The notes under the pieces are model-generated. The model was not told the DNA's origin. It did no database searches and saw nothing but the letters and a program-made list of their open reading frames with translations. The position numbers were made by a program, and so were the translations under genes. From a virus, in the IMG/VR virus record IMGVR_UViG_3300036795_000250, positions 65,194-129,193 of that record: a DNA stretch of 64,000 nt; one strand, written 5' to 3'. Within the stretch, counting starts at the first letter, position 1; the number at the start of each line of letters is the position of its first letter. Positions 44,282 through 60,580 of the stretch are shown in pieces.

Positions 44282-44423
44282 GCGTTCGATTAGACCACAG
44301 AGGCAAGATCAACGGCGGAGGGTAACCCTCCTTTGCGCTCCGGGCGTTGCGACTGCAAATATCGATGCGCACAAAAAATCATGCCCCCGAGCTCAGGATC
44401 GAGATCGGGGGCAGCGAGCAGGA

Positions 44424-44780: not shown

Positions 44781-44814
44781 GATGAGACATCCTTGTTAGT
44801 CCAGGAGGATCGTA

Positions 44815-45012
44815 ATGTTGGTACTCATCTATTTAGGCTTCGCGTGGGTGACCGGATCCGGACTCGCGATGCCGCATAACGTTGCGGGATTGCTAAGCGG
44901 CTTCGCGTTTGGGGCAGTCCTCGCTATCCTCGCAACGATTGTCTACATCAGACACGAGGACCAGGATGCATCACGGCGATCTCATAATATCCATCCCTCA
45001 CAATCGCCGTGA
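44815..45012 (+). CDS. small membrane protein
   Basis: AGGAGG RBS; two hydrophobic helices. Confidence 0.6.
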   Translation: MLVLIYLGFAWVTGSGLAMPHNVAGLLSGFAFGAVLAILATIVYIRHEDQDASRRSHNIHPSQSP

Positions 45013-45029
45013 TGCGTCCGCTCTTTCTG

Positions 45030-45632: not shown

Positions 45633-45642
45633 TCGCTGATCA

Positions 45643-45915
45643 TCAGATGTGATCAGCCGCTCGGGGTACTGCGGCGGGGAGGTCAGCCAACAAGCCCCGC
45701 TCCGTTACCAACCGCCCCCACGATTGCAAGCTGATGGGGCGGTACGGGCGCCCGTCACAGGTGACGTTGACGCCGCTGTCGATGAGATACGGGACCATAC
45801 GGCCGATCTGATCGACGACATCGCTGGCTCGGTCCCAGGTGCGCAGCGCGTTCAGCGCCGCGCGCACGAGAGTGTCAACGTTGATCGATTGTTCTGGTAC
45901 AGCGTCGGTGTTCAT
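45643..45915 (-). CDS. hypothetical protein
   Basis: ATGA-coupled to the FtsK-like gene. Confidence 0.55.
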   Translation of the reverse strand: MNTDAVPEQSINVDTLVRAALNALRTWDRASDVVDQIGRMVPYLIDSGVNVTCDGRPYRPISLQSWGRLVTERGLLADLPAAVPRAADHI

Positions 45916-47300
45916 GCGGCACTCCTGTTTGGTGTTGTGGCGGGCCCGTCGATCAGTTGGCCGTTGTGCTCCACGAACAGCTCGATCCCCGTCCCCCTAG
46001 CCTCCAAGGCGTAGGGCTCCGGATCGAGGACTCGGACCGTCGTGGTCCAGGGCAGCGGGACGTCTTTCACCTCCCTGCTCTCGCCCCGATCAAGGTAGGA
46101 GATCACCTCCGCATTGCCGACGCCGGACACCGTGTAGGTGATGTGGGAGTACACCGGCACGGACGAGTTAGCGGCCACCACGAGCTCCGGCACTGGCTCC
46201 GTCGGCCACACGGGCTCAGGTGCTGCGCGGAGGTCGGCCACGGGCATGACGGTACTGATCAGTTCCCGTGCGTCCGCCTTGCTGACGTAGGCGCCCTGGA
46301 ACCGCGTCGGTGAGGCAGCACCGTTAGCCAGGTACAGACCATCGCCGGACCCGAACAGATGTTCCGCTCCGCCCTGATCGAGCGCCACCCGGGAATCCGA
46401 CTGAGACCGCACCCGGAACGCAACCGAGCTCGGCAGACTCGACTTCAGCGCGGTCGGGATCAGGTCCGCAGTCGGTTTCTGCGTGGCCAGCACCAAGATG
46501 ATGCCCGCCGCACGGCCCTTCGTCGCCAACTTGACCAGTAGCGGAGCGATCTCCTTTTTGTGGCTGGCCAGCAGATCGGCCAGTTCGTCCACCACGATCA
46601 CCGTATAAGGCAGCTGGTTCAGCCCGAGAGCGTTGTACTCGGCGATGTCGTCAACGCCGTGTTCCGCAAAGGATCTGCTGTATTCAGCCATTGTCGCTCT
46701 TACCGCTCGTAGCTCATCGACCGCATCAATGGACTCCGTGATGATCGGAGACATCAGATGCGGCACGTGCGCGAACGGAGTGAATGCCGTCATCTTGGGA
46801 TCAATGAGCAGCAGTCGCAACGCTGTCGCGTCATTGCGGGCGAGCAGGTCAAGCAACAGGCCGGTCAGGAAGATGCTCTTGCCGCTACCGGTGATCCCGG
46901 CAACGAGCAGGTGGACGTCCTCGGCCAGGTTCGCGGTCAGCGTCTCACCGGCAATGCTCCGACCGAGCGTGTAGGTGAGAGCAGGCGCGTCCGTTGACAT
47001 CGGGACGTCGTCACGGGCGAGGTAGGCCCGCACGACGCGTGGCACATCGACGGTCAACAAGGCTTCGCCGTTGGTTGGCATCCGCATATCGATGTTGTCG
47101 TGCCCCAACAGAAAGGCGATATCTTTGCGCATTGCCAGCACATCGCTGACCTTGGTTCCCATGCTTACCGAGATGCCGTAGCGGGTCAGTTGGGGAGCCA
47201 CCGTGCATGAGGCAACGCGGGCGTCGACATTCCGCGTTTCGAACAACCTCATGATTTTGCGTGCATTGTCGTCAGTGTCGATAGTCGATGATGTCGTCAT
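45912..47300 (-). CDS. FtsK/SpoIIIE-type ATPase with C-terminal MmpS-like domain
   Basis: HLLVAGITGSGKS, LLIDPK, VIVVDELADL, GRAAGIILVLATQKP, GAEHLFGSGD; C-terminal ITYTVSG..ISY..VPLPW. Confidence 0.88.
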   Translation of the reverse strand: MTTSSTIDTDDNARKIMRLFETRNVDARVASCTVAPQLTRYGISVSMGTKVSDVLAMRKDIAFLLGHDNIDMRMPTNGEALLTVDVPRVVRAYLARDDVPMSTDAPALTYTLGRSIAGETLTANLAEDVHLLVAGITGSGKSIFLTGLLLDLLARNDATALRLLLIDPKMTAFTPFAHVPHLMSPIITESIDAVDELRAVRATMAEYSRSFAEHGVDDIAEYNALGLNQLPYTVIVVDELADLLASHKKEIAPLLVKLATKGRAAGIILVLATQKPTADLIPTALKSSLPSSVAFRVRSQSDSRVALDQGGAEHLFGSGDGLYLANGAASPTRFQGAYVSKADARELISTVMPVADLRAAPEPVWPTEPVPELVVAANSSVPVYSHITYTVSGVGNAEVISYLDRGESREVKDVPLPWTTTVRVLDPEPYALEARGTGIELFVEHNGQLIDGPATTPNRSAA

Positions 47301-47448
47301 GGCGCATGCCTCCTTTCGACAGCTTGTCCTTTAATCCTACGCTGACTTAACGATCCTGAATTCACCACGCTGACCAAACATGCGAAGCGGCTAATCTCGA
47401 TGATGGTCGGCGCTATCTTCTGCAAGCGACACGAAAGCGCTGGTCAGA

Positions 47449-47472
47449 GGATGGTCACCCTCCTTATTTCGC
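47449..47472. repeat. 24-bp direct repeat, copy 1 (GGATGGTCACCCTCCTTATTTCGC)
   Basis: identical to 49960-49983. Confidence 0.8.
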
Positions 47473-47793
47473 TTGGGTGCCTTCGCTCGTTGGTCCGACA
47501 ACCAACCGGATCGCAGCGTCGGGGTTGTCCATGTGCCGACGAAAAGCGCTCATCGAACTGAGGTACCGGAAAATTTGGTCAGCGCGGTGACGGTCCTCGA
47601 CACGGACGGAGACCAGCCTGGTCGAATCGTCCACCGTGATGCTGTCGTTGACCAAGTCCGCGTAGTTCTGCTTCCAGTCCTCGCGATGGGTGAACCAGAT
47701 GGGCAGGTAGCCGCGCCACCAGTTGACGGAGCGCGGGAAGTTCGGTGCGGTGATCGCAGACTGGTCAATCGTGACGGTGTATGTGGAAGGCAT
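47464..47793 (-). CDS. array gene, hypothetical
   Basis: ATG just downstream of a repeat and GAGAGG RBS. Confidence 0.65.
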   Translation of the reverse strand: MPSTYTVTIDQSAITAPNFPRSVNWWRGYLPIWFTHREDWKQNYADLVNDSITVDDSTRLVSVRVEDRHRADQIFRYLSSMSAFRRHMDNPDAAIRLVVGPTSEGTQAK

Positions 47794-47880
47794 TGCCCTA
47801 ACCTCTCTCGCTTTACTGGCCTGGCAGCCAGAGCAACGCGCGGGCTAAGCCGCGCGCCACTCAAGCTGTCAGGGGACGAA

Positions 47881-48447
47881 TCAGCTGCCCAAGAGTTTCT
47901 CGATCTCGGACAACCTGGCCCGCAATTGCTGTTGCTCGGCAACCAGTGCGTCCCGGTCAACGGCCGTGTCGACAATCGTCAGGTCGCCATGGTCTCGGGC
48001 GCGGGCGATGTCGGCGTGGTCCGCAGGCACGTCCCGGACCTCCAGGACAGTGCCCTCTTGGGCTTCCAGACGCGGGTTTTTGACACTGCCGCCGCTATCG
48101 GCGAACCCGCCGGACACGATGATGACGCCATCGCCAAGGCGCACGGGTTCATCACGGCCGCGCCGACGGGCGATCATGCGACCGAACAGGTACAGCTCGC
48201 CGCTGTACGGGGCGTACCCCTCGGGGTCGGAGAGCCGGACTGTGACGGTCCGACTTGCGGTGCCGTCGGTGCCGTAGACCTCGCGGGCCAGCTCGCGGAC
48301 GCGTTCCTCGTCGCGGAGATCGAAAACCCACGTCTTGGCGTTGGCGTCCCAGCGCCCACCGATGGCCCGTGCCTTGCTGGGCATGGTCGGTTCGTACGGC
48401 GCGTGGAGGGTGACGGTCGTTTCGTCGGTAGTGACGTTGATGCCCAT
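47881..48447 (-). CDS. array gene, conserved phage protein with HARP-like N-terminus
   Basis: HAPYEP....ARAIGGRWDANAKTWVF. Confidence 0.75.
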   Translation of the reverse strand: MGINVTTDETTVTLHAPYEPTMPSKARAIGGRWDANAKTWVFDLRDEERVRELAREVYGTDGTASRTVTVRLSDPEGYAPYSGELYLFGRMIARRRGRDEPVRLGDGVIIVSGGFADSGGSVKNPRLEAQEGTVLEVRDVPADHADIARARDHGDLTIVDTAVDRDALVAEQQQLRARLSEIEKLLGS

Positions 48448-48522
48448 CGCGTATTCCTTCCTGTGCTATTGGATTGGCAGCCAACGCAGCAACCGGCGCA
48501 TGTCCGGTCACCACGCAAGTGG

Positions 48523-49233
48523 TCAGTCCTCGGTGCCTTCGGACTTCTGCGCGTGCCACTCGTCGAGCAGCTTCTGCGCGTCGGCCTCGCTCATCGGTGC
48601 ATCCGGGATCGGCACCACGACGACGTTGTTGGGCAGCACCGCATCCTCGATGTAGTGCTGCCCGCCGGTACCGTCCAGGCGGAATGCGAGCCGTCCGCTC
48701 CCGCTCTGCTCAACCCAGCCGTTCACCTCTGCGGCGATACGCTCGGCAGGGCTCTGCTGAGACTCGGGGTTGTTCGGATCCGCCCACCGTTGCGCAGCCT
48801 TGACCGCGTCCCGTGCGGCCTGCCCCGCCTCGATGCGTGTCAGGTAGTCGGCCGCAACGTCCAGAGCCTCCACGATCACGCTGGACAGCGGCGAGGCCAT
48901 GAACACCACGTTGGGCTCGGGGAACTGCGCGGGAGAGATCTCCCAGGCATCCGCGTTGGTGTCCGCGCTCACCTGGCCGTGCTCGATACCCCAGAGACTC
49001 CCCTCACCGATCGTGACCCCGTAGAGAGAGACCTCAACTTCCATACCCACTCCCATGAAGTCATCGCGGCGCCACCGGGCGAGGTAGTCCTCTCGGTCCG
49101 CCGGAGTATCAAACTCTTGATCCTTCGGGTCGTAGTCCTCATCTCGGTACATGCTGGCCTCGATGACGACCATGGGCGTGACGTCGTCATCGGGAGACTG
49201 CCACAACGTTTTCTGTTCGATCGGTTTGGTCAT
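48523..49233 (-). CDS. array gene, acidic hypothetical
   Basis: start MTKPIEQ; stop inside the repeat. Confidence 0.7.
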   Translation of the reverse strand: MTKPIEQKTLWQSPDDDVTPMVVIEASMYRDEDYDPKDQEFDTPADREDYLARWRRDDFMGVGMEVEVSLYGVTIGEGSLWGIEHGQVSADTNADAWEISPAQFPEPNVVFMASPLSSVIVEALDVAADYLTRIEAGQAARDAVKAAQRWADPNNPESQQSPAERIAAEVNGWVEQSGSGRLAFRLDGTGGQHYIEDAVLPNNVVVVPIPDAPMSEADAQKLLDEWHAQKSEGTED

Positions 49234-49309
49234 GATTCCTTCTTTCCCTTGTTGTTGACCTGATTGCCAGCACAGCGCGCGGGCCGAAACCCGTGCACCA
49301 TGCAAGCGG

Positions 49310-49591
49310 TCAGCTCTGCCGAGCCAGGAACGCGGCGATCACGGCGTCGTAGTCGCGCGCCATACCCTCTTTCGTAGGCCAGTTGCCCAACGACGCACCA
49401 GTTTCGATGTCGCCGATGTAGAAGCCTCCCAGGTCCGACGGGGACGGCCCTGCGTAGAACCGGCTCACGTTGTTCCCGTCGGCGTTGTACAGCAACCATT
49501 CACCCGTGCCCACATCGCGCCACGCCCACCCGGCGGGGAGGTTCGCGTCATCCCACGTGGTGCCGTCGGTGACGTCGAATACTGCGCTCAT
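49310..49591 (-). CDS. array gene, hypothetical
   Basis: start MSAVFDV; stop inside the repeat. Confidence 0.65.
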   Translation of the reverse strand: MSAVFDVTDGTTWDDANLPAGWAWRDVGTGEWLLYNADGNNVSRFYAGPSPSDLGGFYIGDIETGASLGNWPTKEGMARDYDAVIAAFLARQS

Positions 49592-49664
49592 ATCTCCTTC
49601 TCTCTTTTCGCTGGCCTGGCAACACCAGCACGGAGCGCGGGCAAGCCGTGCGCCATGCAAGCGG

Positions 49665-49919
49665 TCAGGTGTGCGCAACTTCGCTGTAGGGCTTCCAGCC
49701 ACGGACGGATTCACCGGCATACCAGCGTGTCTCTTTGGCGTAGAGCTGGGCAGCAAAGCCAGACGTTCGGGCGGCTTCGGCGTCGCGCTTGCGGTCGAAG
49801 TTGCCTTCGAGCTCATAACCGTCGGCCGCACAGATCGACCAGCAGCCACCAGTTTTGACCACTAGCCATGTTGAGGGTGGGTTCGCGGCGTGTTCTTCGG
49901 GATTGCTGAATAGCGACAT
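49665..49919 (-). CDS. array gene, hypothetical
   Basis: stop inside the repeat. Confidence 0.65.
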   Translation of the reverse strand: MSLFSNPEEHAANPPSTWLVVKTGGCWSICAADGYELEGNFDRKRDAEAARTSGFAAQLYAKETRWYAGESVRGWKPYSEVAHT

Positions 49920-49959
49920 TCTTCGACACCTTTCTCGGTATGACTTTCTTTGGTAGAAG

Positions 49960-49983
49960 GGATGGTCACCCTCCTTATTTCGC
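49960..49983. repeat. 24-bp direct repeat, copy 2
   Basis: identical to 47449-47472. Confidence 0.8.
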
Positions 49984-49994
49984 CCGGCACGGTG

Positions 49995-50336
49995 TCAGGC
50001 GACCTCTGCCAGATCCCGCAACACGACGTCCCGCACCTCTTGCGGGAGATCCGTCCAGCGGCAGGCGCGGTGTGCGTTGCGGAACCGGTAGGCGGCCACC
50101 TCGTACGCGGGCATATCGCCGTACATGCCGAATCCCTGCGCGTGTGTCGGGTGCTTCGACATGCCCCGGTAGCCGAGTCGCATATCCGCGTAGGTCGTGC
50201 CACACACGGGCGTCGCGTAGAAGATCGTGTACCGGTCCGCCGTCTTCGGGCCGTCGTCGTAGATTGCCAGCACTTCGCGCGGGCAATCACCATCGCGCCA
50301 ACCTGTCGACTGCCGACGGGGCGAATATTTGTTCAT
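49995..50336 (-). CDS. array gene, hypothetical
   Basis: LAIYDDGPKTADRYTI..PTHAQGFG. Confidence 0.7.
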   Translation of the reverse strand: MNKYSPRRQSTGWRDGDCPREVLAIYDDGPKTADRYTIFYATPVCGTTYADMRLGYRGMSKHPTHAQGFGMYGDMPAYEVAAYRFRNAHRACRWTDLPQEVRDVVLRDLAEVA

Positions 50337-50404
50337 GATCTACAACCCTTCTGCTGTCTGGCAACCAGCACAGGGCACGGTCGAGCCGTGCGCCATGCAA
50401 GCTG

Positions 50405-50572
50405 TCAGCCCTCAATCTCTCCGACGACTTCGCGGATCTTCTGTGCGACCGCTAGGGGCAGGCTCAACCAGCGCGAGTCACCCTGTGGGCCCGCGAACTT
50501 GACGCGAACCATGTCCGTGTCGCCGACACCCTTCAGAGCCAAGTCAATCTGGCGTTGCTCGTAATTGCTCAT
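50405..50572 (-). CDS. array gene, 55 aa hypothetical (not in ORF track)
   Basis: MSNYEQRQIDLAL after AGGAGG; stop inside the repeat. Confidence 0.6.
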   Translation of the reverse strand: MSNYEQRQIDLALKGVGDTDMVRVKFAGPQGDSRWLSLPLAVAQKIREVVGEIEG

Positions 50573-50574
50573 AG

Positions 50575-50784
50575 TCAGACCTCCTTTTCGTTACGTTCGT
50601 GCAGTTCGACGAAATCCTGTGGTACCTCGGTCACCTCGGCGCCGTCGGATGATGTGTGGTAGTTCAGTTCGTAGATACCGACAGGGTCAGGTTGACCCGG
50701 GTCGTTATCGGTCGTCGGCTCATCGTCATAGACCGCCACCCGCAACAGATCGAGTGCCGGATGTTTCCACACACGTAGCGGCAC
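50575..50784 (-). CDS. array gene, hypothetical
   Basis: fills the gap between neighbours. Confidence 0.5.
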   Translation of the reverse strand: MPLRVWKHPALDLLRVAVYDDEPTTDNDPGQPDPVGIYELNYHTSSDGAEVTEVPQDFVELHERNEKEV

Positions 50785-50787
50785 AGA

Positions 50788-51294
50788 TCAGCCCCCCGTC
50801 ATGACGTCGCGGGCGAGCGACATCAGCGTGTCGATCTCATCTTCGCGACCCTCGAACAACTGCCAGTCGTCGTTGCCGTCGGCTCGAACGTGCACGGCAT
50901 AGGTATGCGCCGACGCGTCCCAGTCGATGGTGAGCAGTTCCCCGGATGCGGGCGCTGGGTTGTCGCTTGCCGGGCTGTCGGGGGCTGTCTGGGCACCGCG
51001 CGCCTTGAGGTGCTGGTACCGCGTGCCTGCCACGAATGCATCCATCCACAGCGCGGCAAGAGTGGTCTTGTTGTCGTCGGCTTCAGCTACGGTCATCCGA
51101 CCGTGCAACGCGACCAGGCCGCGCATGGCGCGCTGAGTAGCCGCGTACACCAGCGATTGGGTATTGACGATCCGCCCGGCAATGTCTGGGATTGACTGGC
51201 CGCTGTCCGCCTGCGCATCGGTGTCGATGAGTGCCTGCGAGATCAGCCAAAAGTCTGGGTGGTCGGGCCGATCGGGGAAATTCTTATCCGTCAT
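50788..51294 (-). CDS. array gene, hypothetical
   Basis: start MTDKNFPDRPDHPDF. Confidence 0.7.
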   Translation of the reverse strand: MTDKNFPDRPDHPDFWLISQALIDTDAQADSGQSIPDIAGRIVNTQSLVYAATQRAMRGLVALHGRMTVAEADDNKTTLAALWMDAFVAGTRYQHLKARGAQTAPDSPASDNPAPASGELLTIDWDASAHTYAVHVRADGNDDWQLFEGREDEIDTLMSLARDVMTGG

Positions 51295-51369
51295 GGTTGC
51301 GTGTCCTTCCTCTGTGGTTCTGGCCACCAGCGCAGCAACCGGGCTCTTGTCCGGTCACCACGCAAGCGG

Positions 51370-51855
51370 TCAGTCTCCGATCAGCAACGTACCGGCGTGA
51401 AGTTCCTTGGTGGTCACGTGTGGTGAGCTTTCACCCGGGTGAGGCATGTGCATGATCAGCCGCCCGGCATGTTCGGCGTCGGTGTCCGATGGGATGCGCC
51501 GCACGGTGAACGCGAACGCGCCGCGCGGGTCACCGACACTGATCATTACCGTAACGCTGTCTTCGCGCTCGTCCAGATGGATTGCAGCGGAGTTGACCCA
51601 CGACAGCGGGATCGGTTCCGGGTCGTGCGGGCCGTAGTCCACGCTGTCATCAGTGACCGGACCGTCAAGAAGGTTTTCGAGGCATAGCGCACCTTCGGGC
51701 CCACCGGAGAACACTTCGCCGTCTTGGGTGAGCGGTTCACTGCACGCGCGGCATCGGTGGGTTTCCTCGCGGTCCGTGTCGAACTCGACCGTGACGTACT
51801 CGACATCGTCCGTGACCTCTTGCGATTCACTGTCGATGCTGATCAGGGGAAGCAT
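51370..51855 (-). CDS. array gene, hypothetical
   Basis: stop inside the repeat; ISVGDPRGAF. Confidence 0.7.
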   Translation of the reverse strand: MLPLISIDSESQEVTDDVEYVTVEFDTDREETHRCRACSEPLTQDGEVFSGGPEGALCLENLLDGPVTDDSVDYGPHDPEPIPLSWVNSAAIHLDEREDSVTVMISVGDPRGAFAFTVRRIPSDTDAEHAGRLIMHMPHPGESSPHVTTKELHAGTLLIGD

Positions 51856-51934
51856 GGTTATGTCCTCTCGTTGGTTCTGGCAACCAACGGAACGAACGAG
51901 CCGGTCAGGGATCGCACGTTCCGCAAGTGGTCAG

Positions 51935-52501
51935 TCATTCGCCGCGCAGCTCCGCGTCATAGTGCATGGCGCCGTTCGCGTCGACCTTGTCGTAATCCAG
52001 GCCCAACGCATCGCAGAGGTGGCGCGCGTTGGCCAGGAAGTCACCCAACACCAATTCGGGCGACTCGTCAGAGACTAAGGTCATGAGCGCAAACGAGCGA
52101 AGACCTCTCAGCGCCCACTGTGCACGCAGGTAGTTGTCTGCGGAATAGTCTTTCCAGTCGAGTTGATCATCACTCGTGCACTCGTCAAGGTCAACAAGTC
52201 TGACGTCGTCGGGGATCGACTCCATGAACGGCGTGGCTGGATAGAGCACTTCCGCAGCATCGGAAGCCGGGGGGCTGCTGGTCAGCTTGCGCCAGTTGAT
52301 CGGCCCGTTGTGGGCGGACAGCAACGTATCGAGTTGGGCGAAATCGGCCGCCAGTTGGCTTTGGTAGTCGTCCGCCCGCGAACGGTGTTCCGACGCTGCC
52401 ATGTATCGCAAGGCGCCATCCGACTCATCCGCCGCTTTATGCTCATTGTCAATTCGAGCGAGTAGCTCACGAATGCCCATCAACAATTCACGTTCGGCCA
52501 T
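51935..52501 (-). CDS. array gene, hypothetical
   Basis: DFLANARHLCD..GLDY; stop abuts the repeat. Confidence 0.7.
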   Translation of the reverse strand: MAERELLMGIRELLARIDNEHKAADESDGALRYMAASEHRSRADDYQSQLAADFAQLDTLLSAHNGPINWRKLTSSPPASDAAEVLYPATPFMESIPDDVRLVDLDECTSDDQLDWKDYSADNYLRAQWALRGLRSFALMTLVSDESPELVLGDFLANARHLCDALGLDYDKVDANGAMHYDAELRGE

Positions 52502-52576
52502 TGCTCTCACCTTTCTCTGTGGTCTGGCAACCAACACAGTGCACGGACCACTAGGGCCCGTGCGCCACGCAAGCGG

Positions 52577-52831
52577 TCAGCCATTGACGTACGATTCTGC
52601 GATGGTGAGGAATTCCTTGTAGCTCTTGGGCGGCTTCGTCATTCCGAACTGAGATGGATCGACAACCGGCCTGTTTGACCAGCTCGATTTGTCATCCCGC
52701 TTGGCACCGAACGAGAGTCCGCTAGTGCCGCGCGCGTTGACCAGCGTGTAGCGGGTTCCAGACTCGGACACCCATTCGACCGCAAACGCAGCGAGGTTGC
52801 TGACGTTGACGAGACCCACTTTTTCAGTCAT
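52577..52831 (-). CDS. array gene, hypothetical
   Basis: start MTEKVG; stop inside the repeat. Confidence 0.65.
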   Translation of the reverse strand: MTEKVGLVNVSNLAAFAVEWVSESGTRYTLVNARGTSGLSFGAKRDDKSSWSNRPVVDPSQFGMTKPPKSYKEFLTIAESYVNG

Positions 52832-52898
52832 TGCTCTACCTCCGTTGTCTGGCAACCAACACAGTGCGCGGACCGAAGCCCGTGCGCCATGCAAGTGG

Positions 52899-53147
52899 TC
52901 AGTTGGCCAGTCCGCCCGGGTATTCGTCCGACTGATACACATCGCGTCCCTGGTCAAAGCCGTTCGTGTAGTGACCCTCACCGGACTCGTACGCGTCCTG
53001 CTCGGACTGAGTACCCGTACCGAGGTCATCACTGGCCGCCCAGTCGTAACCAGCGTGGAAGCCGACCCGAGCCTGTTCCCGTGCCTCACCCTGCAAACCG
53101 ATCTGATCGAGCCACGCGGACACGTCGAACGCTGGATTTTCCGTCAT
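52899..53147 (-). CDS. array gene, acidic hypothetical
   Basis: stop inside the repeat. Confidence 0.65.
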   Translation of the reverse strand: MTENPAFDVSAWLDQIGLQGEAREQARVGFHAGYDWAASDDLGTGTQSEQDAYESGEGHYTNGFDQGRDVYQSDEYPGGLAN

Positions 53148-53228
53148 GATCCAAAACCTCTCTGTCGTTGGTCTGAGAACACAACAGAGCGGCTATCTCC
53201 CCCTCGTGGATAGCCGCTCGATGAGTCA

Positions 53229-53615
53229 TCAGAGCTTGACGCCGAACACGTTGACGCGCTCGACGTAGTAAGGGCCGACGTAGTGTGTCCACCGACGGCT
53301 GACACTCGCCACGATGGCCGCCCACAGTCGCGAGTTGAAGTCCGGGCCGTCCCCCTCGACGTGCGCGCTTCTCTCGGTCAGCACGCCCGTGTAGGGGTCC
53401 TCGTACGGCTTGAGCTCGCTCAGCCAGGTACGGCGGTCGTAGGGACCAGGATCCGCGCTCGGAGAGCCGAATCCCTCACCCTCCAACCAGTCCGCGCACT
53501 CCCGTGCGTTGTCGAACGAGTGGGAGTCGGTGCGTTCGTCGGTGCGCTCCCTCTCGTCTGCTCCCTCTTCCCACGCTGCGTAGGTTGCCGTGTGGACTTC
53601 AATGGTGATTTTCAT
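53229..53615 (-). CDS. array gene, hypothetical
   Basis: start MKITIE; stop inside the repeat. Confidence 0.65.
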   Translation of the reverse strand: MKITIEVHTATYAAWEEGADERERTDERTDSHSFDNARECADWLEGEGFGSPSADPGPYDRRTWLSELKPYEDPYTGVLTERSAHVEGDGPDFNSRLWAAIVASVSRRWTHYVGPYYVERVNVFGVKL

Positions 53616-53710
53616 GGTTGGTGGGCTCCCTAGGTGGGCTGATTGAACAACAGAACGGCCACCGTGTGATCGATGGCCGTTCGATGAACCGTCAGACCTT
53701 GTGCGCGCAC

Positions 53711-54088
53711 TCAGGCTTGCGCTACGTCCGCGACGTGTTCGAGCAGCGGAACAACGCCGTTGCTCTTGGGTGTCCAGGAAACCGCGTGCCCTCGGTCTCC
53801 GCCGAGAGGGGAACCGCAGCCGTCGCATGATGACGACGAAAACCAAGGTTCGCAGGATTCGACCTCGGTACCGGTTGCGCGCGCCTCCCTGCCGCAGTGC
53901 TCGCAGTCCAGCGAACCGAGCGTGATATCCGTGTCACCCCACAACGCGGCCATTTTGTCACTCTGCGCGCTGGTGATGTCTTCCCCGGAACTGTCCAGTA
54001 CCTCGCCGTTGGCGAGCAGCGCGACGCAATCCGTACAGATAGTCAGTTCGGTTGTGTCGAATTCCTTGCCGTTCACGCCAATTGTCAT
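53711..54088 (-). CDS. array gene, Cys-rich hypothetical
   Basis: ICTDC..FSSSSCDGCGSPLGGDR. Confidence 0.7.
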   Translation of the reverse strand: MTIGVNGKEFDTTELTICTDCVALLANGEVLDSSGEDITSAQSDKMAALWGDTDITLGSLDCEHCGREARATGTEVESCEPWFSSSSCDGCGSPLGGDRGHAVSWTPKSNGVVPLLEHVADVAQA

Positions 54089-54161
54089 TGCTCTCAACTC
54101 CTGTTGTCTGGCAACCAACGGAGCGAACGAGCCCGTAGGGGATCGCACGCTCCGCAAGCGG

Positions 54162-54380
54162 TCAGCTATCCAACCGATCCATCATGTGACCGAACATCAC
54201 GTGTAGCCGCGTGTTGACCTTGACGCGTGCCGCGTTGACGATGGCAGGGTCAACACCCAACGTGATGAGCGCAGCCTCTCCCGCGTCGATAGCGTCCTTG
54301 CCCGGGTAGTTCATGATGATGTTGTAGGCCAGTTCGACCCTGTGATCCTCCGTTGTGGTGGTCGTGATCTTTCCGTTCAT
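54162..54380 (-). CDS. array gene, hypothetical
   Basis: stop inside the repeat. Confidence 0.6.
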   Translation of the reverse strand: MNGKITTTTTEDHRVELAYNIIMNYPGKDAIDAGEAALITLGVDPAIVNAARVKVNTRLHVMFGHMMDRLDS

Positions 54381-54452
54381 TGCGCAGCCCTCTCGTTGTC
54401 TGCCAACCAACACCGCGCACGGACCGCTAGAGCCCGTGCGCCATGCAAGCTG

Positions 54453-54740
54453 TCAGCGTTTGTCGTCGGCGACCACGTCGCCGCACATTTCGTGGTCGTG
54501 TTCCTGGTCGCCTGGCATGGCGCACGTGCGCTGATCTGGTTGCACGTCGTCCGGGTTGAATGCGCGGAGTAGGTCAGCGCCGGTACGTGTCACGGTCCAT
54601 TCGCGGTGCCCTGCCGATCGGGGGCGAACGAGTCGCGCGTCCCACACAGCGCGCCACTGGTCATCATTCGCACGGGCATCCCGAGTGTTGAACCGCGCTA
54701 CGTGTTTCAGCACGTGCTCGATAGTGAGTCTTTCGCCCAT
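54453..54740 (-). CDS. array gene, hypothetical
   Basis: start MGERLT; stop inside the repeat. Confidence 0.6.
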   Translation of the reverse strand: MGERLTIEHVLKHVARFNTRDARANDDQWRAVWDARLVRPRSAGHREWTVTRTGADLLRAFNPDDVQPDQRTCAMPGDQEHDHEMCGDVVADDKR

Positions 54741-54814
54741 TGTGTTGCCCTTCCGTTGGCCTGAGTAACTAGCAGTGTGCACGGGCTCTTGTCCGTGCAC
54801 ACTGCCGTAGCTGA

Positions 54815-55009
54815 TCAGGGTTGCGGTGAGTCGTGCCCAGAGTTGAGCTGATCGCAGAGCGCTTCCGCCTGTCCGGCGGTCTCGCGTTCTTGCGACGGGT
54901 AGGCGCTGGTATCGCCGTTGCGGTAGGCAATCCACGCGTCGTAGTCGACCACGCGGAAGCTGTCCGTCTCATTGGTGTTCGAGTGCGGACGTAGGACGAC
55001 ATAGCCCAT
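54815..55009 (-). CDS. array gene, hypothetical
   Basis: stop inside the repeat. Confidence 0.6.
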   Translation of the reverse strand: MGYVVLRPHSNTNETDSFRVVDYDAWIAYRNGDTSAYPSQERETAGQAEALCDQLNSGHDSPQP

Positions 55010-55088
55010 TATTTTGACCTTTCATTACTAGGCTGATCACCTAGCACGGTGCGCGGGCTCTACAGTCCGTGCGCCATGCCGTAGCTGA

Positions 55089-55424
55089 TCAGCGGAGCAC
55101 TGGCATGCTTGGCTGGAGTAGCTTCCGCAGCTCCGCTGCCTGGTCTCCACCTTGACGCATGATCGACTCGACCAGCATCACAGTCAGCTCAACCGCGCTT
55201 GGGAGGTGCATTTCGGCGGCTTGGTCTGCGAGTTGCTGACATTCGGAGTCCGGATTCAGGTCCCCACCACAGTCACAGCCGTCAGTTGACGGCCCGTGTT
55301 CATAGTTCGAGCACAGTTCGTCCCCGTCAATCGTTACGGGATCCATTACCCACGTACGTGCACCCGACTCGTCTTCGGCCAAATTCAGATAGACCGCTAC
55401 CGATTCTTCTATCTTGTGTTTCAT
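55089..55424 (-). CDS. array gene, hypothetical
   Basis: start MKHKIE; stop inside the repeat. Confidence 0.6.
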   Translation of the reverse strand: MKHKIEESVAVYLNLAEDESGARTWVMDPVTIDGDELCSNYEHGPSTDGCDCGGDLNPDSECQQLADQAAEMHLPSAVELTVMLVESIMRQGGDQAAELRKLLQPSMPVLR

Positions 55425-55499
55425 TGTCTCTCTGTCCTTCCTAGGCTGATCACCTAGCACGGTGCGCGGACCGTAACCCGTGCGCCATGCCGTAGCCGA

Positions 55500-55706
55500 T
55501 CAGATCATGCCGTCTGAGTACCAAGGCTCATCTTCGTACTCACTCGTTCCGTTGCAGGCAGCACAATCAGCCGTGCATACCGCGTCCCACGTGGAGCGTG
55601 GCGAGCGTTGCACCATGGTGTGACCGTTGACCGCCCGGTACGGCTTGCGCCACTCCTCGTTGTCCTGCTCCGCGATCAGGTCTCGTGTGTTCACTTGCTG
55701 TGTCAT
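55500..55706 (-). CDS. array gene, hypothetical
   Basis: start MTQQVN; stop inside the repeat. Confidence 0.6.
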   Translation of the reverse strand: MTQQVNTRDLIAEQDNEEWRKPYRAVNGHTMVQRSPRSTWDAVCTADCAACNGTSEYEDEPWYSDGMI

Positions 55707-55796
55707 CGTTCGGCCCTCCTTACTCCGTTGTCTGGCAACCAACGGAACGAACGAGCCTGTAGAGGGATCGCGCGTTCCGCAAGTGGTCAGAGCCGA

Positions 55797-56069
55797 TCAG
55801 GCACGCTCACGCGTGAACGGGTGAATCGTGGTGAGCCGTTCCCCGTTCATCGTGGTGTGACCCGGTAGTCCGTTCTTACGGACGCGAAACCAGCCATTCC
55901 AGGGACTGTGATAGGTCTCGGCGTAGGTGGGGTCACTCAGGTGCACCGTGTCCGCGAACACGACCGTTACGCGGTCAAGGTCATAATCCCAGTAGCTCCC
56001 CCCGTCGGTGATCCGCTCACCGTTCGCCGTCAAGAACCGTGCATCCGTGTTCGGGTCGATGTTTTCCAT
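55797..56069 (-). CDS. array gene, hypothetical
   Basis: stop in the CTGATCGG tail. Confidence 0.6.
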   Translation of the reverse strand: MENIDPNTDARFLTANGERITDGGSYWDYDLDRVTVVFADTVHLSDPTYAETYHSPWNGWFRVRKNGLPGHTTMNGERLTTIHPFTRERA

Positions 56070-56158
56070 CGTGTGGCCTTTCTAGGTAGTCCGATAAAGC
56101 AAGTGAATGGCTACCGGGAATGCCGCTAGCCATTCAATGAGTCATCGGGCCGATCAGA

Positions 56159-56356
56159 TCATTTCTTTGGTTCTATGGTGAGATCTCCGATAGCCAACGT
56201 GGCTGACCTCATCGAACGGTGGACAGAGACGGTCAGCCAGTTGTGCCACTCGTCTTGTTTTTTGACCGAGTAGAATTGGCCAAGCATGCCGTTTCGGCGG
56301 ATGCGATAGTCGCCGATTTGCCATTCCCAGCCGCGAACTATTGTTATGGTTTTCAC
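56159..56356 (-). CDS. array gene, lower-GC hypothetical
   Basis: GTG start next to the truncated repeat. Confidence 0.5.
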   Translation of the reverse strand: MKTITIVRGWEWQIGDYRIRRNGMLGQFYSVKKQDEWHNWLTVSVHRSMRSATLAIGDLTIEPKK

Positions 56357-56401
56357 TAGTTGTGCTCCGTAGGGGGTCGCGCGTTCCGCAAGCGGTCAGA
56401 A

Positions 56402-56743
56402 TCAGTCGACTGGCACGGTCTCACTGGCAACGTGTTCCGTGCACATGTACACGTCGCCCTGCAAGCCGCCCAGACGGACCGTGACGGCTCCCGGGTTCGG
56501 GCAGTCGCCAGACCACCCGCACGGGTCGGCAGGGCTCCCACCAGCCGCACGGGAGCCGAGCACGCTGCGCAGTTTCTGCCGCGCGATCACGCGCAGCGTG
56601 TGCGTGCCGAACCGCTTGTCCAACCGCACGAGATAGGCAATCTCTGCCGCGATCTCGTCATCCGTGAACAGGCTTGGTCTCGTCTGTGGGGTTGGCTCGT
56701 TCATCCGGGCTTTGCCGGGTACGTACTTCTCTCCGCCACGCAT
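56402..56743 (-). CDS. array gene, hypothetical
   Basis: start MRGGEK; C-terminal C..C..C.H. Confidence 0.55.
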   Translation of the reverse strand: MRGGEKYVPGKARMNEPTPQTRPSLFTDDEIAAEIAYLVRLDKRFGTHTLRVIARQKLRSVLGSRAAGGSPADPCGWSGDCPNPGAVTVRLGGLQGDVYMCTEHVASETVPVD

Positions 56744-56825
56744 GGTCTTGTCCTTTCTAGGCTGATCACCTAGCACAGCGCGCGGGCCCTAGTGGTCCGT
56801 GCACCATGCCGTAGCTGATCAGAGG

Positions 56826-57011
56826 TCACAGCACCTGTTCAAGGTCGGCAGTCACGTAGCTGCGTTCCGCACCGGACTTGTCCAGTTTGACGACCGTCAT
56901 CTCTGGTACCTGGTGTTGCCGCACGACTACCCCGTACCGGTCACCTCGCATCCATTGATCTGTCCAGACCGGAATCTCGACACGTGTTCCTGGTGCGTAT
57001 GTGCCTGTCAT
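56826..57011 (-). CDS. array gene, small beta-rich hypothetical
   Basis: GTRVEI...D.WMRGDRYG.V..VKLDKSG. Confidence 0.65.
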   Translation of the reverse strand: MTGTYAPGTRVEIPVWTDQWMRGDRYGVVVRQHQVPEMTVVKLDKSGAERSYVTADLEQVL

Positions 57012-57080
57012 TTTCCCTACCTCTCTGGTCTGAGTAGCTAGCACAGTGCACGGGCAAGCCGTGCACCATGCCGTAGCCGA

Positions 57081-57335
57081 TCAGTACTCGAAGTCGGCTG
57101 AGCCGATCAGCATCGCGGCGAATGCGATGCCTTCTAGGAAATCTGCGCTCACCGCTTGCGCTGCCCACTCAGTCCCTGCCAGACACTCAACGAGGTTCTG
57201 TCGGTCGGTAGTGATCATCTCTTGCAGTCGCTGAGCTAGTCCGTCCCGCGCTTCCCGGATGCCCTCGGAGCGGCTGGATTCGGTCAGCGCGGCGATTTTG
57301 TCTACGTAGTCGCCGATCTGCTCTTCTGTGGTCAC
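57081..57335 (-). CDS. array gene, hypothetical
   Basis: stop inside the repeat. Confidence 0.6.
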   Translation of the reverse strand: MTTEEQIGDYVDKIAALTESSRSEGIREARDGLAQRLQEMITTDRQNLVECLAGTEWAAQAVSADFLEGIAFAAMLIGSADFEY

Positions 57336-57430
57336 GGATTGACCCTCTCGTCATGGTGGGCCGATAAGCCAACAGAACGGCCCTCACGTGCTCTGTGTGG
57401 GCCGTTCGATGAGTCATCGGGGTACATCCC

Positions 57431-57805
57431 CTACCGGGGGTCGACGATGCGCGTACGGATGCCGTCGGGCCCTGCCGCGATTTCGGTCACGAGACCGCGT
57501 GGGTTGATGGTGAGCGCGTACTCATGTGCCGCTTCGATGTCACTGACACGCGGCGCTGGCTGATCGGTGTACGTGCTCAGGTAGGGCATGCCGAGAGCAT
57601 CCCGGTAGATCCCCGCTTCCCCCCACGTGACGGGGAAGCTGAACGGCTCACCAGTCTCGGTCAGGAGTTGCGCCATCCAGTTGTCGAGCACGCGGACAGA
57701 CATCGTCTTGCCCGCGACGCGCATGTGCACGCATACCTCGGAGCCTGGAAGCTCGATCGCGACCACGTCGCCAACGGCGACGGTTGTGGTCAAATACTTG
57801 CGCAT
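57431..57805 (-). CDS. array gene, hypothetical
   Basis: start MRKYLTT after GAGGA. Confidence 0.6.
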   Translation of the reverse strand: MRKYLTTTVAVGDVVAIELPGSEVCVHMRVAGKTMSVRVLDNWMAQLLTETGEPFSFPVTWGEAGIYRDALGMPYLSTYTDQPAPRVSDIEAAHEYALTINPRGLVTEIAAGPDGIRTRIVDPR

Positions 57806-57900
57806 AACAATCAATCCTCTGTGTAGGCGCCGATAAGCCAACGGAGCGGCTACCGGCAAGGTCGGTAGCCGTTCGATGAGTCATCGGTGTGTAGAGCCGA

Positions 57901-58110
57901 TCAGGCGACTTCGGTCCGGAGCAACCGCGCCAATCGGTAGTAGGTGGCATTCGGCAGTGCGCTGAAAAGCGCGTCGCGAATGGCGAGCGCGTCCGCTTTC
58001 ACCGTGTCCTGAAACACCGTGCGGTCAGCGCTGCCAACGTCGCCCGGGAGCGGTACAGGCAGGCACGTGACGCTGAGCGTGCCCCAACTGTGGATAGTCA
58101 GGTCAGTCAT
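57901..58110 (-). CDS. array gene, hypothetical
   Basis: start MTDLTI. Confidence 0.6.
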   Translation of the reverse strand: MTDLTIHSWGTLSVTCLPVPLPGDVGSADRTVFQDTVKADALAIRDALFSALPNATYYRLARLLRTEVA

Positions 58111-58184
58111 GCTCTTGTCCTCTCTGTGGTCTGAGTAGCTAGCACGGTGCGCGGACCGAAGCCCGTACACCGTGCCGTAGCTGA

Positions 58185-58790
58185 TCAGAGCAATTCCGCC
58201 TTGCCGCTGTCGGTGAGCACGTACCGGCCGTCCGCGTTGAGCTCAACCCAGCCGTGCTGAACCAACACGTCGATCATGGTTCCGGGATTGCCCTGCGAGC
58301 GCAGGCCACGCGCGATCATGCGCAACTCGCGTTGCGCCGGAGTGCCCGGGGAGGTGTCCACCGTGTCAGCGGCAACCGTGACGACGATGGAACGCGGATC
58401 GACCAGGTAGGAAACCCCGATCGGCGCACGGTTGAATTCGGCCCGCACATCGTCGGTGATCTGCGGTACCGCTTCCGCGCGGAAGCATTGCCGCGCCGCG
58501 CTCTCGGAGGATGCTTCCACGGTGGCGGAATACTCCCGTTTGCCGTTGAGCGAGGATGCCGTCACGGTGTACGTATGCAGCTGCACGGTGGGAGTGTGCC
58601 TGTTGTCGATCATGTAACTTCCCTTCTCAGAATCGAGAATCCAGCGATCAGGCTGAGCTATGACGCTCAAGGTTCCGATATCGAGCCTGCCTGATCGGTC
58701 GGTAGTGGAGTCGGGCGTCACTGCGACGTAGCTACCGGTGGACATATGGCGGAGCTCTCTCGCCAGTTCATCTCGCCCCATCGTGATCAC
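58185..58790 (-). CDS. first array gene, hypothetical with C-terminal winged-helix-like end
   Basis: LVQHGWVE...RYVLTDSGK; stop inside the repeat. Confidence 0.65.
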   Translation of the reverse strand: MITMGRDELARELRHMSTGSYVAVTPDSTTDRSGRLDIGTLSVIAQPDRWILDSEKGSYMIDNRHTPTVQLHTYTVTASSLNGKREYSATVEASSESAARQCFRAEAVPQITDDVRAEFNRAPIGVSYLVDPRSIVVTVAADTVDTSPGTPAQRELRMIARGLRSQGNPGTMIDVLVQHGWVELNADGRYVLTDSGKAELL

Positions 58791-58993
58791 TAGTCACGGT
58801 CAGCGGATTGACTACACGGATGCGTTCGACCGTGCGCACTTTATGTTGGGGCCTCCGGACTCTCACGGCTGGTATCCGCCAGCGCTATGTCCCAAGGGCC
58901 TTGTGTCCCGAGGGCTCGAACCCCGGTGACGCCGATCTGTTCTCAGTCTCTCTGTCGTCACTACATCTGCGACGTTAGCCAGTTCCGTAAACG

Positions 58994-59009
58994 ACATGAG
59001 TACTCATGT
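58994..59009. promoter_or_regulatory. 16-bp perfect palindrome, candidate operator in the array leader
   Basis: ACATGAGTACTCATGT; a TTGACC hexamer lies about 40 nt upstream on the minus strand. Confidence 0.4.
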
Positions 59010-59942
59010 AGCGATGTTGCTCTTAGCTAGGCGTATCGCTACAGGTCAAGCACTCTATTTGCGTTAGCCACTAGTTTCCTGCCTTCGGCGTGTCTCTCAG
59101 AAACACAGGGTGTGTCGTGATCTAGCTCCCTGGTGAGTAGAGGCCCGATGTCCGTATCAGTGCCTGGTCATAGTGACGTCTCTACGGGGTGATCACTACA
59201 GGTGGTCCCATGGGTAGGGGAGGTGACGTAGGTAGGTGTACTCAGAGGCACTGCCTCGCAGGCCAGTACTCACACCACGTGCCCCGTGCGTGGTCATGGG
59301 TATGTGCCTGCCGTTGGGCGTGGTGTGGGCGGTAGAGGCGCATACAGAGGTCACTGTGCATGATGTCCGATACGGTCTCGTCTCACTAGCGATGATCATG
59401 TGTGGGAACGCGGAGCGTTCGGTACTCAGTAGAGCAGCGCATGCCTGGTTAGTGCAGGTGGGCTCTGTGGTCGGTAGCCGCTGCTCTCTCGGGTATCAGT
59501 AGGTATGTGGGTCATCGGATAGTGAGTTGAGGAGTGGATTGAACAGTCTCTGTCTGAGACGCACGTCGCGTGCCGCTGTCCTGCCCGTTGCACGCTTGCC
59601 GACCGACTGCCGTCGGTCGGCAAGCGCAGCTACTGCGCACCGCAGAGCGGCACACACTGCTCTGTCCACAGAGGTCACTAAGGACAAGCCCAGTTACCTA
59701 GTCACCCTTATGTCACATCTCAGCGCTAGCAACACAGCGTCGCTGACTGCCTACAGTCGGCAGAGGGTAGCTAGGGGTAGATGGATCATGCTCCGCTTTA
59801 CGACTGCAAATTCACTAGTGCAAATTGATCATCGAAACCTGAATGACGTCTCGTGCACAGCCCAAAAAGATCATGATACCTTAATCGATACAGAAGGATC
59901 ACCCACCAACCCGACCAGAACACCTCCCCACCCTCTACCCTG

Positions 59943-60365
59943 ATGCGCATGCCGGAGCTGAGGCGCTATGTCCTGCGGTCGCTGACGGATCAGTCCGATA
60001 CGGTGTGGGTCAATAAGGACGATCTGCTGCAAGTCCTGCGCCACGGGCTGCACGGCAACGCGTGCAGCCACGGCGACCGTGCCTGCGTCGACGATGCGAT
60101 CGCCGAGGTGGCCGACATCATCGAGAGGACGGTGTCGCGCCTGGACCGCAGCGATCCGCTGAACGCCTGGGTGCCGCCGGGGCAAGCGCAGCCGTGCACC
60201 TGCCGCAGCGCGGTCCCCCCGCTACCGGAGCGCGGGGTACGGGCGATCCTGGCCGCAGCATGGTCGTCGTCGTGGTCGTCCTGGGCTGGCACGCTCTTGC
60301 GGGTGTCCTTGCTGATCTCGGGGGTCTTGGTCGTGCTCTTCCTGTGCTTGCCTGCTCCGTGGTAA
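59943..60365 (+). CDS. hypothetical protein with C-terminal TM helix
   Basis: hydrophobic C-terminus. Confidence 0.55.
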   Translation: MRMPELRRYVLRSLTDQSDTVWVNKDDLLQVLRHGLHGNACSHGDRACVDDAIAEVADIIERTVSRLDRSDPLNAWVPPGQAQPCTCRSAVPPLPERGVRAILAAAWSSSWSSWAGTLLRVSLLISGVLVVLFLCLPAPW

Positions 60366-60580
60366 CCCACCAACCAGACGAGAACACCTCCCCCTCACCG
60401 TGGAGGCCCTCCGCTATCGTCACCAGGCGGATGGTGGCGTGGACGGTCACACGGCAAGCACCGGGGCTAGCGCGCCAGGCTGGTTGGGCGCGGTAGTTCT
60501 ACCTGGCTCCGGTCGCCACCGTCCGCCTCGGGCTTGGCAGCGGGGGACGAGACTCCCTCACCAACCCAGCACTAGCCTGG

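Follow-up and report, generated by a model that had tools for sequence, protein, structure and literature searches.

In the 64,000-nt window analysed here (positions 65194–129193 of the IMG/VR virus record IMGVR_UViG_3300036795_000250; coordinates are those of the window unless stated otherwise), 28 small co-oriented genes are separated by long imperfect hairpins that constitute new sequence families of a kind of RNA element already seen in actinophages and never explained. The hairpins fold preferentially on the coding strand, sit between the stop codon of one gene and the ribosome-binding site of the next, are restricted to this one operon, recur in other phages and have no dedicated recombinase. 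From these features we infer cleavage and stabilisation of the message, the enzyme responsible and recombination at the repeats. Under the model that we favour, to which we give roughly an even chance, the hairpins would serve as the places where the RNA of one long polycistronic operon is processed and stabilised.

Organization of the array and hairpin families

According to the lists of open reading frames (ORFs), the operon segment spans 47464–58790 on the minus strand, and its 28 genes encode products of 55–236 aa among which no paralogues were found (blastp, E≤1e-3). Repeat finding, folding of each copy and alignment defined 23 complete hairpins of 51–61 nt and one 5′-half copy. Located between 47821 and 58188, all of them on the minus (coding) strand, they fall into family A, including a subtype A2 (12 complete copies and the truncated one), family B (6 copies) and family C (5 copies); two junctions, 50572/50575 and 49919/49995, lack a hairpin. 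The array of hairpins between unrelated genes that a first-pass annotation, made from the sequence alone, had reported is therefore real, and its count of 12+1 family A copies stands; its five B and six C copies became six and five here, with one copy assigned differently.

The junctions share a common layout. The stop codon of the upstream gene is the TGA within the first CTGA of the hairpin at 15 of 24 junctions and lies 1–14 nt upstream of the hairpin at the other nine. The chosen start codon follows the end of the hairpin by 17–27 nt in all 23 cases and is preceded by a purine-rich Shine–Dalgarno sequence, and the linker after the hairpins is A/C-rich and has no U run. A junction unit of 55–80 nt is thereby present on both sides of array genes. 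The hairpin arms measure 23–29 nt, about two helical turns, and the loops 4–8 nt. The 5′ terminal triplet is CTG in 20 and CCG in 3 of the 23 complete copies, and the 3′ terminal triplet is CAG in 19, CGG in 3 and CAA in 1. This agrees with the stop–repeat–ribosome-binding site–ATG unit of the first-pass annotation and, the CAA copy apart, with its outer CTG/CAG or CCG/CGG triplets. Its ‘poorly paired spacer’ was an overstatement: the lower stem is mostly paired and carries 1×1 mismatches at fixed positions.

The family A hairpins are located at 54400–54456 (65.3 bits against R1, a covariance model built from family A), 52849–52902 (73.2 bits), 52524–52580 (70.3 bits), 51320–51373 (67.5 bits), 50358–50408 (65.7 bits), 49616–49668 (60.6 bits), 49260–49313 (65.1 bits), 48474–48526 (58.1 bits; the copy with the 3′ end CAA) and 47821–47872 (67 bits), the last of the array; in all of these except the last, the stop lies in CTGA. 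Complete copies of subtype A2 are found at 55732–55790 (64.4 bits), 54108–54165 (68.2 bits; stop in CTGA) and 51877–51934 (66.3 bits), where the stop codon abuts the hairpin. The truncated A2 copy at 56370–56399 retains the 5′ arm and the loop and lacks the 3′ arm, with the breakpoint within the hairpin. Family B comprises the hairpins at 58131–58188 (27.6 bits), 57030–57084 (29 bits), 56762–56822 (36.2 bits), 55446–55503 (35.1 bits), 55033–55092 (33.4 bits) and 54761–54818 (28.3 bits), all with the stop in CTGA except 56762–56822. The family C hairpins, assigned by fold and alignment, lie at 57830–57887, 57361–57420 (11.1 bits), 56091–56148, 53639–53695 and 53173–53232, the last of these with its stop in CTGA. 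All of these hairpins are on the minus strand. A further 23-nt repeat-like stretch at 50262–50284 was taken as chance, because it lies inside a gene, g22, whose product aligns over its full length with proteins of cluster E phages.

Structure and strand preference of the hairpins

With all 23 copies aligned by MAFFT, family C and the 3′ ends of family B were misplaced, and RNAalifold consequently returned no structure; a structure of 21 pairs was therefore supplied by hand on the 12 family A copies, from which R1 was built. In these copies, 94.8% of the cells are paired, against 33–40% when the partners are slid, and double changes occur in 8 of the 21 pairs. For 25 A-type copies from three phages (the two others are described below), 93.2% of 474 cells are paired, against 33–42% with slid partners, and 12 of 19 pairs are doubly changed; the 56 double-change cells compare with 16.1±3.7 in shuffles, and none of 500 shuffles reached 56. 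Some of the minimum free energy folds of the hairpins allow an alternative register. Family A was also considered as a bulge–helix–bulge motif, a reading that was rejected given that families B and C and the hairpins of other phages share only a simple long-hairpin consensus; to our knowledge, bacteria have no archaeal splicing endonuclease.

When 44 hairpins from four phages were folded on both strands, the coding strand was the more stable in 39 of them (18 of 23 in this phage, 14 of 14 and 4 of 4 in the contigs G002 and G001, and 3 of 3 in Saccharomonospora phage PIS 136), with a mean of −30.7 kcal/mol compared with −25.7 kcal/mol for the complement (nominal p 3e-7). G–U pairs account for 166 of 938 pairs on the coding strand and for 67 of 854 on the complement. 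Since the coding strand folds better, and does so via G–U pairs, the hairpin is selected as a single strand of sense polarity, most simply mRNA.

The linker after the hairpin is, in addition, complementary to the lower 3′ arm, and changes in one are accompanied by changes in the other, as in CUAGG–CCUAG, GUUG–CAAC, CUGCC–GGCAG and CUGGUC–GACCAG. The small rival hairpin that they can form excludes the lower stem but not the upper stem. Native combinations of arm and linker have a mean of −5.9 kcal/mol, against −4.0 kcal/mol for swapped ones, and none of 2000 permutations reached the native value; for this genome alone, the native mean is −4.3 kcal/mol (p=0.037). The rival hairpin is strongest in G002 (−5.7 to −12 kcal/mol) and weak in PIS 136 (−1.3 to −2.1 kcal/mol), where the effect is absent.

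Distribution in the genome and in other phages

A search of the whole 129-kb genome with R1 gave 18 minus-strand matches, namely the 12 training copies (58–73 bits) and the 6 family B copies (27.6–36.2 bits). All of them fall within genome positions 113014–123381, and the only others are their weaker mirror images, so that this search of the rest of the replicon, which the first-pass annotation had proposed, yielded no copy outside the array. Rfam 15 gave no match at E≤1 in 45000–61000, and the whole window contains none that reaches the gathering score. The refuting evidence named by that annotation, strong similarity to a known Rfam or attC model, was thus not found.

A degenerate pattern scan of the viral collection retrieved only two further contigs. 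One of them, G002 (59,404 bp, judged 88% complete), carries 14 minus-strand hairpins of A and B types at 44171–51665, and the other, G001, is a fragment of 23,652 bp with 4 hairpins at its start. The stop lies in CTGA at 7 of 14 junctions in G002 and at 3 of 4 in G001; for the three phages pooled, it lies in the hairpin base at 25 of 42 junctions and 1–22 nt before the hairpin at the remaining 17. In G002, a nearly invariant leader, GAGTCAAGGAGGTA, follows each hairpin, 5–9 nt before the array start codons. The FtsK-like gene of that contig (43027–44130) directly follows the array, with the last hairpin and the fixed leader ahead of it; the array thus runs into an FtsK-like gene both in this phage and in G002, which are otherwise dissimilar.

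Three divergent hairpins are present on the minus strand of PIS 136 (JX006077), at 29884–29946, 31689–31747 and 32081–32131. They are unannotated, share the frame (CTGA...CCAG or CCGG...CCGG) and the layout of the array, each being followed by a ribosome-binding site and a start codon, and are not adjacent to the FtsK gene. The PIS 136 record also carries two IS200/IS605-type elements. As a cultured phage, PIS 136 could serve as an experimental system. DNA similarity of the array phage to G001, G002 and PIS 136 is confined to the hairpins, plus the DnaE gene in PIS 136; it has seven proteins in common with G002, none with G001 and four with PIS 136, and none is common to all.

Scanning a metagenome collection recovered G001 and G002 again together with two short contigs with single weak matches, and scanning a prokaryote genome collection gave weak matches in one contig of a metagenome-assembled genome. 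Given that these pattern scans were nearly empty, the hairpin families are rare in what was searched. R1 also matches Quink (KF279417) at 6415–6473 (22.8 bits, E 0.0025), on the strand opposite to the genes and within the 118-nt gap between gp131 and gp130 of this cluster E phage; this hairpin is probably an unrelated palindrome.

Gene content and probable turnover of the array

None of the 28 array products reached the Pfam cut-off, and 5 of the 20 scanned against PHROGs match families of unknown function. Homologues of g22 were found in 88 phage records, mainly of cluster E mycobacteriophages and Rhodococcus phages, and the homologue in Quink lies among genes spaced too tightly to accommodate a hairpin. 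The phage homologues of g26 (47881–48447, 188 aa, phrog_18108) come only from Fusobacterium, Dolichospermum and Salisaeta phages, a very broad phylogenetic spread for an actinophage gene. A single cassette, g11, is common to this phage and G002, and a different hairpin type flanks the G002 copy.

Orthologues of the FtsK-like protein encoded next to the array were found on a contig of 130,405 bp (76% identity) and on one of 38,632 bp (65% identity). The search for cassette homologues, which requires shared 5-residue words, gave for g27, the cassette next to the FtsK-like gene, a single homologue, on another contig of 46,882 bp, and for g10 none among 5.8 billion proteins; for neither of the two cassettes searched was a homologue listed on the two contigs with FtsK-like orthologues. 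Neighbouring hairpins are more alike than random pairs (0.32 compared with 0.237, p=0.018), the half hairpin at 56370–56399 marks a breakpoint inside a copy, and G002 contains one cassette between identical hairpins and one pair of adjacent paralogous cassettes. The half copy, the similarity of neighbours, the cassettes unlisted on relatives and the G002 cassettes together suggest that recombination has occurred at the repeats.

Recombinases, promoters and terminators

Genes for tyrosine recombinases (PF00589) were found only at genome positions 3563–4138 and 55825–56334, more than 55 kb from the array. These two genes lie about 52 kb apart and outside the window; they may reflect a temperate phage or the presence of a second mobile element in the record. 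Among the other array genomes, G002 has a serine recombinase only (no PF00589) and G001 a tyrosine recombinase, and no gene for a Y1 HUH nuclease (PF01797) or for RNase III was found in the three. The statement of the first-pass annotation that no recombinase is in the window holds for site-specific recombinases; a RecA/UvsX-like gene is present at 6977–8383. The terminal triplets of the 23 copies contain no AAC/GTT cores, and 21 of the 23 lack flanking direct repeats.

Promoter-like sites in 45500–60800 number 3, compared with 3.4±1.9 expected, and terminator-like sites with a U-tract number 5, compared with 9.2±3.2 expected. Mycobacterial RNA polymerase is reported not to terminate at hairpins without U-tracts (Czyz et al. 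2014, PMC3993855), a finding that argues against a terminator role for the hairpins.

Genomic context and probable host

The record comprises 129,193 bp, was judged 96% complete and has a G+C content of about 62%, and the window is its right half (65194–129193). Window genes encode a tape measure protein of 1,943 aa, a portal protein, a terminase, PolA, a DnaE-type polymerase, the RecA/UvsX-like protein and an FtsK/SpoIIIE-like ATPase; no tRNA gene was found by a tRNA scan. The DnaE protein shares 65% identity with its counterpart in PIS 136 and about 49% with the DnaE proteins of Streptomyces phages. The host of the array phage is therefore probably an actinobacterium. Comparison of the array with 50,697 phage records by megablast gave no DNA match, and no near relative came up when the viral collection was searched with PolA, the FtsK-like protein or alignments of FtsK and of g27. 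A search of sequencing runs listed no RNA run that contains the sequence and a single DNA run, which may come from the source sample. Among the contigs of this DNA run, one spans the whole stretch, accompanied by some short unrelated pieces; one of two tables from the same run lists one joint, from 58323 to 49698, and the run is uninformative on expression or excision.

Directly downstream of the array lies the FtsK/SpoIIIE-like ATPase gene (45912–47300, minus strand), whose product has, among precomputed Pfam matches, none to the gamma (DNA-reading) domain. The 160-nt gap between the last cassette and this gene folds no better than shuffles (z −0.08). Within 47300–47464, the words CTGACC and GCTTGC recall a decayed 5′ arm of family A.

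Upstream of the array, a gene-poor stretch of about 1.15 kb (58791–59942) adjoins a divergent ORF on the plus strand. It contains no convincing gene, its G+C content is lower than that of its surroundings, and a perfect GC-rich hairpin of 15 bp is located near 59591–59626 (−41.9 kcal/mol in a 60-nt window). This region probably holds the promoter of the array, and it may represent an early control region or a leader RNA. With a probable promoter there, the array would most simply form one long transcript.

A proposed processing model and its alternatives

In the model we favour, the accessory-gene operon would be read leftward from the non-coding region at 58.8–59.9 kb, and the message would present at each junction, in order, a stop codon (usually UGA in CUGA), the imperfect hairpin, the linker, the Shine–Dalgarno sequence and the start codon. 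A host RNase III-type double-strand-specific endonuclease, or another host RNase, would cut at the hairpins; a host factor is favoured over a phage factor because the three array genomes have no RNase III, HUH nuclease or common recombinase and no protein in common. The cut would fall between the lower and the upper stem. The stable upper stem-loop would then form the end of the upstream message, and the downstream message would start with the small rival hairpin just before its ribosome-binding site. Each gene would thus obtain a protected message of its own, in the manner of the T7 early region with its RNase III sites. Given that the same unit flanks every gene, the junctions would also be sites for homologous recombination, which could add, remove or swap single genes, with gene turnover as a by-product.

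The first-pass annotation had offered two readings, an integron-like cassette system and a serial array for processing or stabilising transcripts. The latter fits the sense-strand asymmetry, the arms of 23–29 nt, the lack of any excess of promoters and U-tract terminators over chance and the stop–hairpin–ribosome-binding site layout; the former is not supported, as set out below.

Several points weigh against the processing model. The hairpin copies are kin by descent, so the permutation and Wilcoxon figures overstate their independence, even though the direction of the strand preference is consistent across four phages despite this kinship. The 1×1 mismatches at fixed positions are not accounted for. 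Family C is unrecognised by R1 (11.1 and 8.7 bits), and its membership is by architecture alone. With the first 13 nt held open, predicted accessibility is 0.59 versus 0.59 for the Shine–Dalgarno sequence and 0.51 versus 0.50 for the start codon. Unmasking of the ribosome-binding site by upstream translation was discarded on this basis: a simple unmasking switch is not supported by the unchanged accessibility, which leaves the rival hairpin without a demonstrated effect. Finally, families A and B are about 75–80% identical between phages that have no other DNA similarity. As RNase III needs little sequence, this identity is left unexplained by the model; it points to a sequence-specific partner or to recent exchange.

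A possible, though clearly less probable, explanation is a translation-linked switch between two states, in which the ribosome at the UGA would melt the lower stem of about 10 nt and the freed 3′ arm would pair with the linker; this refolding, and not a cut, would tune re-initiation or ribosome loading at the next ribosome-binding site by long-range translational coupling. Such a switch would fit the position of the stop inside the hairpin base at 25 of the 42 junctions, the covariation of the rival hairpin with the 3′ arm and a mismatched lower stem of about the length that a terminating ribosome might be expected to cover. However, the predicted accessibility of the Shine–Dalgarno sequence and the start codon is equal in both states, the other 17 stops come before the hairpin, and the rival hairpin of PIS 136 is weak.

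Two further explanations appear improbable to us, and to a similar degree. The hairpins might be binding sites for a sequence-specific RNA-binding regulator of host or phage origin (a translational repressor, an antiterminator or a chaperone) that sets the timing or level of expression. Sequence conserved beyond the needs of pairing, families common to dissimilar phages and mismatches at fixed positions would be expected of such sites, but three quite different sequence families coexist within one operon and no phage protein is common to the four genomes. Alternatively, recombination might be the primary role, with the hairpins kept as modules for shuffling single genes by homologous recombination, in the manner of the promoter-early stem-loops (PeSLs) discussed below. 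The genes are mostly orphans (no Pfam match for any of the 28 products and no homologue for g10), a RecA/UvsX-like protein is encoded by the phage, cluster E phages carry g22 without hairpins, and the half hairpin, the likeness of neighbours and the G002 cassette between identical hairpins are what shuffling would leave. Yet evolvability alone would not keep a G–U-dependent pairing of the sense strand with compensatory changes, and promoter or terminator content of the PeSL kind is lacking.

It is very unlikely that the repeats are selfish palindromes of the REP or MITE type, or polar DNA signals for the FtsK-like translocase encoded next to them. They are palindromic and in one orientation, and an FtsK-like gene abuts the array here and in G002; but the copies are confined to one operon, with no target duplications and no transposase, the fold is strand-specific through its G–U pairs, no gamma domain appears among the precomputed Pfam matches, and the PIS 136 hairpins lie away from the FtsK gene. 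Least probable of all is an integron-like system of site-specific cassettes, in which a recombinase or HUH nuclease of its own would act on folded sites in single-stranded DNA: the outer triplets, imperfect stem, variable loop and one promoterless, unrelated gene per unit, often with its stop inside, do resemble attC cassettes, but this reading is not supported, because there is no AAC/GTT core and no common recombinase or HUH nuclease (none of the Y1 type, no recombinase within 55 kb of the array, and classes that differ across the array genomes: tyrosine, tyrosine and serine only), and the coding strand folds better through G–U pairs, with 21 of 23 copies lacking direct repeats.

A further reading is offered tentatively, as less probable than the processing model. 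The junctions may form a gene-capture platform that works without a recombinase, the hairpins being preferred crossovers for the trade of single genes among dissimilar actinophages. Any gene placed between two hairpins would be expressed at once, because the element gives a stop and protection of the message end and a ribosome-binding site follows. If true, this would be an RNA-level counterpart of integron cassettes, extending across this phage, G001, G002, PIS 136 and cluster M. Should the junctions also guide gene exchange, they would help to account for the ability of phages to gather and express many orphan accessory genes. The hairpins could, furthermore, serve as portable insulators in multi-gene constructs for actinobacteria.

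Comparison with known systems

Integron attC sites are folded imperfect palindromes at cassette boundaries with an RYYYAAC/GTTRRRY core, recognised by IntI and active as the bottom strand. The array resembles them in having one folded imperfect palindrome per boundary and one promoterless gene per unit, and differs in the lack of IntI and of an AAC/GTT core and in the better folding of the coding (top) strand (39 of 44 hairpins). REP/RAYT, IS200/IS605 and MITE elements are distinguished from it by the lack of PF01797 here, by the 21 of 23 copies without direct repeats and by the location of all copies in one operon.

Repeats with a comparable location have been described in cluster K mycobacteriophages. 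SAS are motifs of 13 bp located ahead of start codons, and imperfect inverted repeats of 17 bp precede roughly half of them (PMC3203893). ESAS, with inverted repeats of 15–17 bp, have since been interpreted as SigA-like promoters that include an operator-like repeat (PMC11373665), and the function of SAS and ESAS still awaits tests according to PMC12699233. Common to these elements and to the array are imperfect inverted repeats before a ribosome-binding-site leader, in one orientation among non-structural genes, and the G002 leader GAGTCAAGGAGGTA is SAS-like. In contrast to ESAS, with arms of 15–17 bp and a promoter, the array has arms of 23–29 nt and no promoter signal. The SAS sequence GGGATAGGAGCCC gives 1 match with 2 mismatches, compared with 1.49 expected, at 61258 and outside the array, and R1 has no match at E≤1 in positions 30000–60835 of Anaya.

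In T4-type phages, PeSLs are made up of a sigma-70-type promoter and a stem-loop that acts as a terminator (PMC2839356, PMC4122927). PeSLs and the junctions described here are both repeated short units that flank small orphan genes in a variable region and are likely substrates of gene shuffling; the array differs in that its promoter-like and terminator-like sites are not above chance, and neither mini-circles nor breakpoints were observed for it. We regard PeSLs as the closest analogue for the evolutionary role of the hairpins.

The RNase III signals of the T7 early mRNA (R0.3 to R1.3) are hairpins between cistrons, and processing at them leaves hairpin-protected ends. In both systems, mutually related hairpins of about 50–60 nt lie on the sense strand between the cistrons of one transcript, and the array has the T7-type feature of a sense-strand hairpin of at least about 20 bp between cistrons. 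They differ in host phylum, and the present hairpins, known from sequence, embed the stop codon, have a rival 3′ hairpin and match no Rfam family. By analogy, the T7 RNase III sites are the closest counterpart for the proposed mechanism.

The architecture itself has its nearest parallel in cluster M mycobacteriophages, where stem-loops lie upstream of the conserved repeats CR3 and CR4, and gene insertions bring a copy of the repeat (PMC7953290). In Estes, a cluster M phage, the gaps between the small leftward genes near the right genome end measure 74–109 nt; in most of them, an imperfect hairpin of considerable length begins at or near the stop codon, in several cases directly on it, and is followed by a fixed ribosome-binding-site leader and ATG. 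In all 12 intergenic gaps, the coding strand gives the better fold. The array and Estes thus share the succession of stop, long hairpin, leader and start between small co-oriented genes near a genome end. They have no sequence homology: the best R1 match in Estes scores 17.3 bits (E 0.06), and the CR3-like leader of Estes has 2 matches with 3 mismatches here, compared with 1.41 expected, neither of which is the leader of a junction (one falls in the first gene of the array, within its coding sequence, and the other outside the array). The array is also distinguished by its three hairpin families in one operon and by the outer CTGA...CAG frame that supplies the stop.

Repeats in the non-structural operons of actinophages, such as SAS and ESAS of cluster K and the conserved repeats of cluster M, have been catalogued for more than a decade without a mechanism. 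The 23 copies reported here, in three families of which two also occur in another, dissimilar contig, provide clear evidence for action as sense-strand RNA. They lead to a concrete, testable model in which a cut between the lower and upper stems would leave both products capped by a hairpin. Because cluster M phages share this architecture and grow on Mycobacterium smegmatis, the model is directly testable with RNase mutants.

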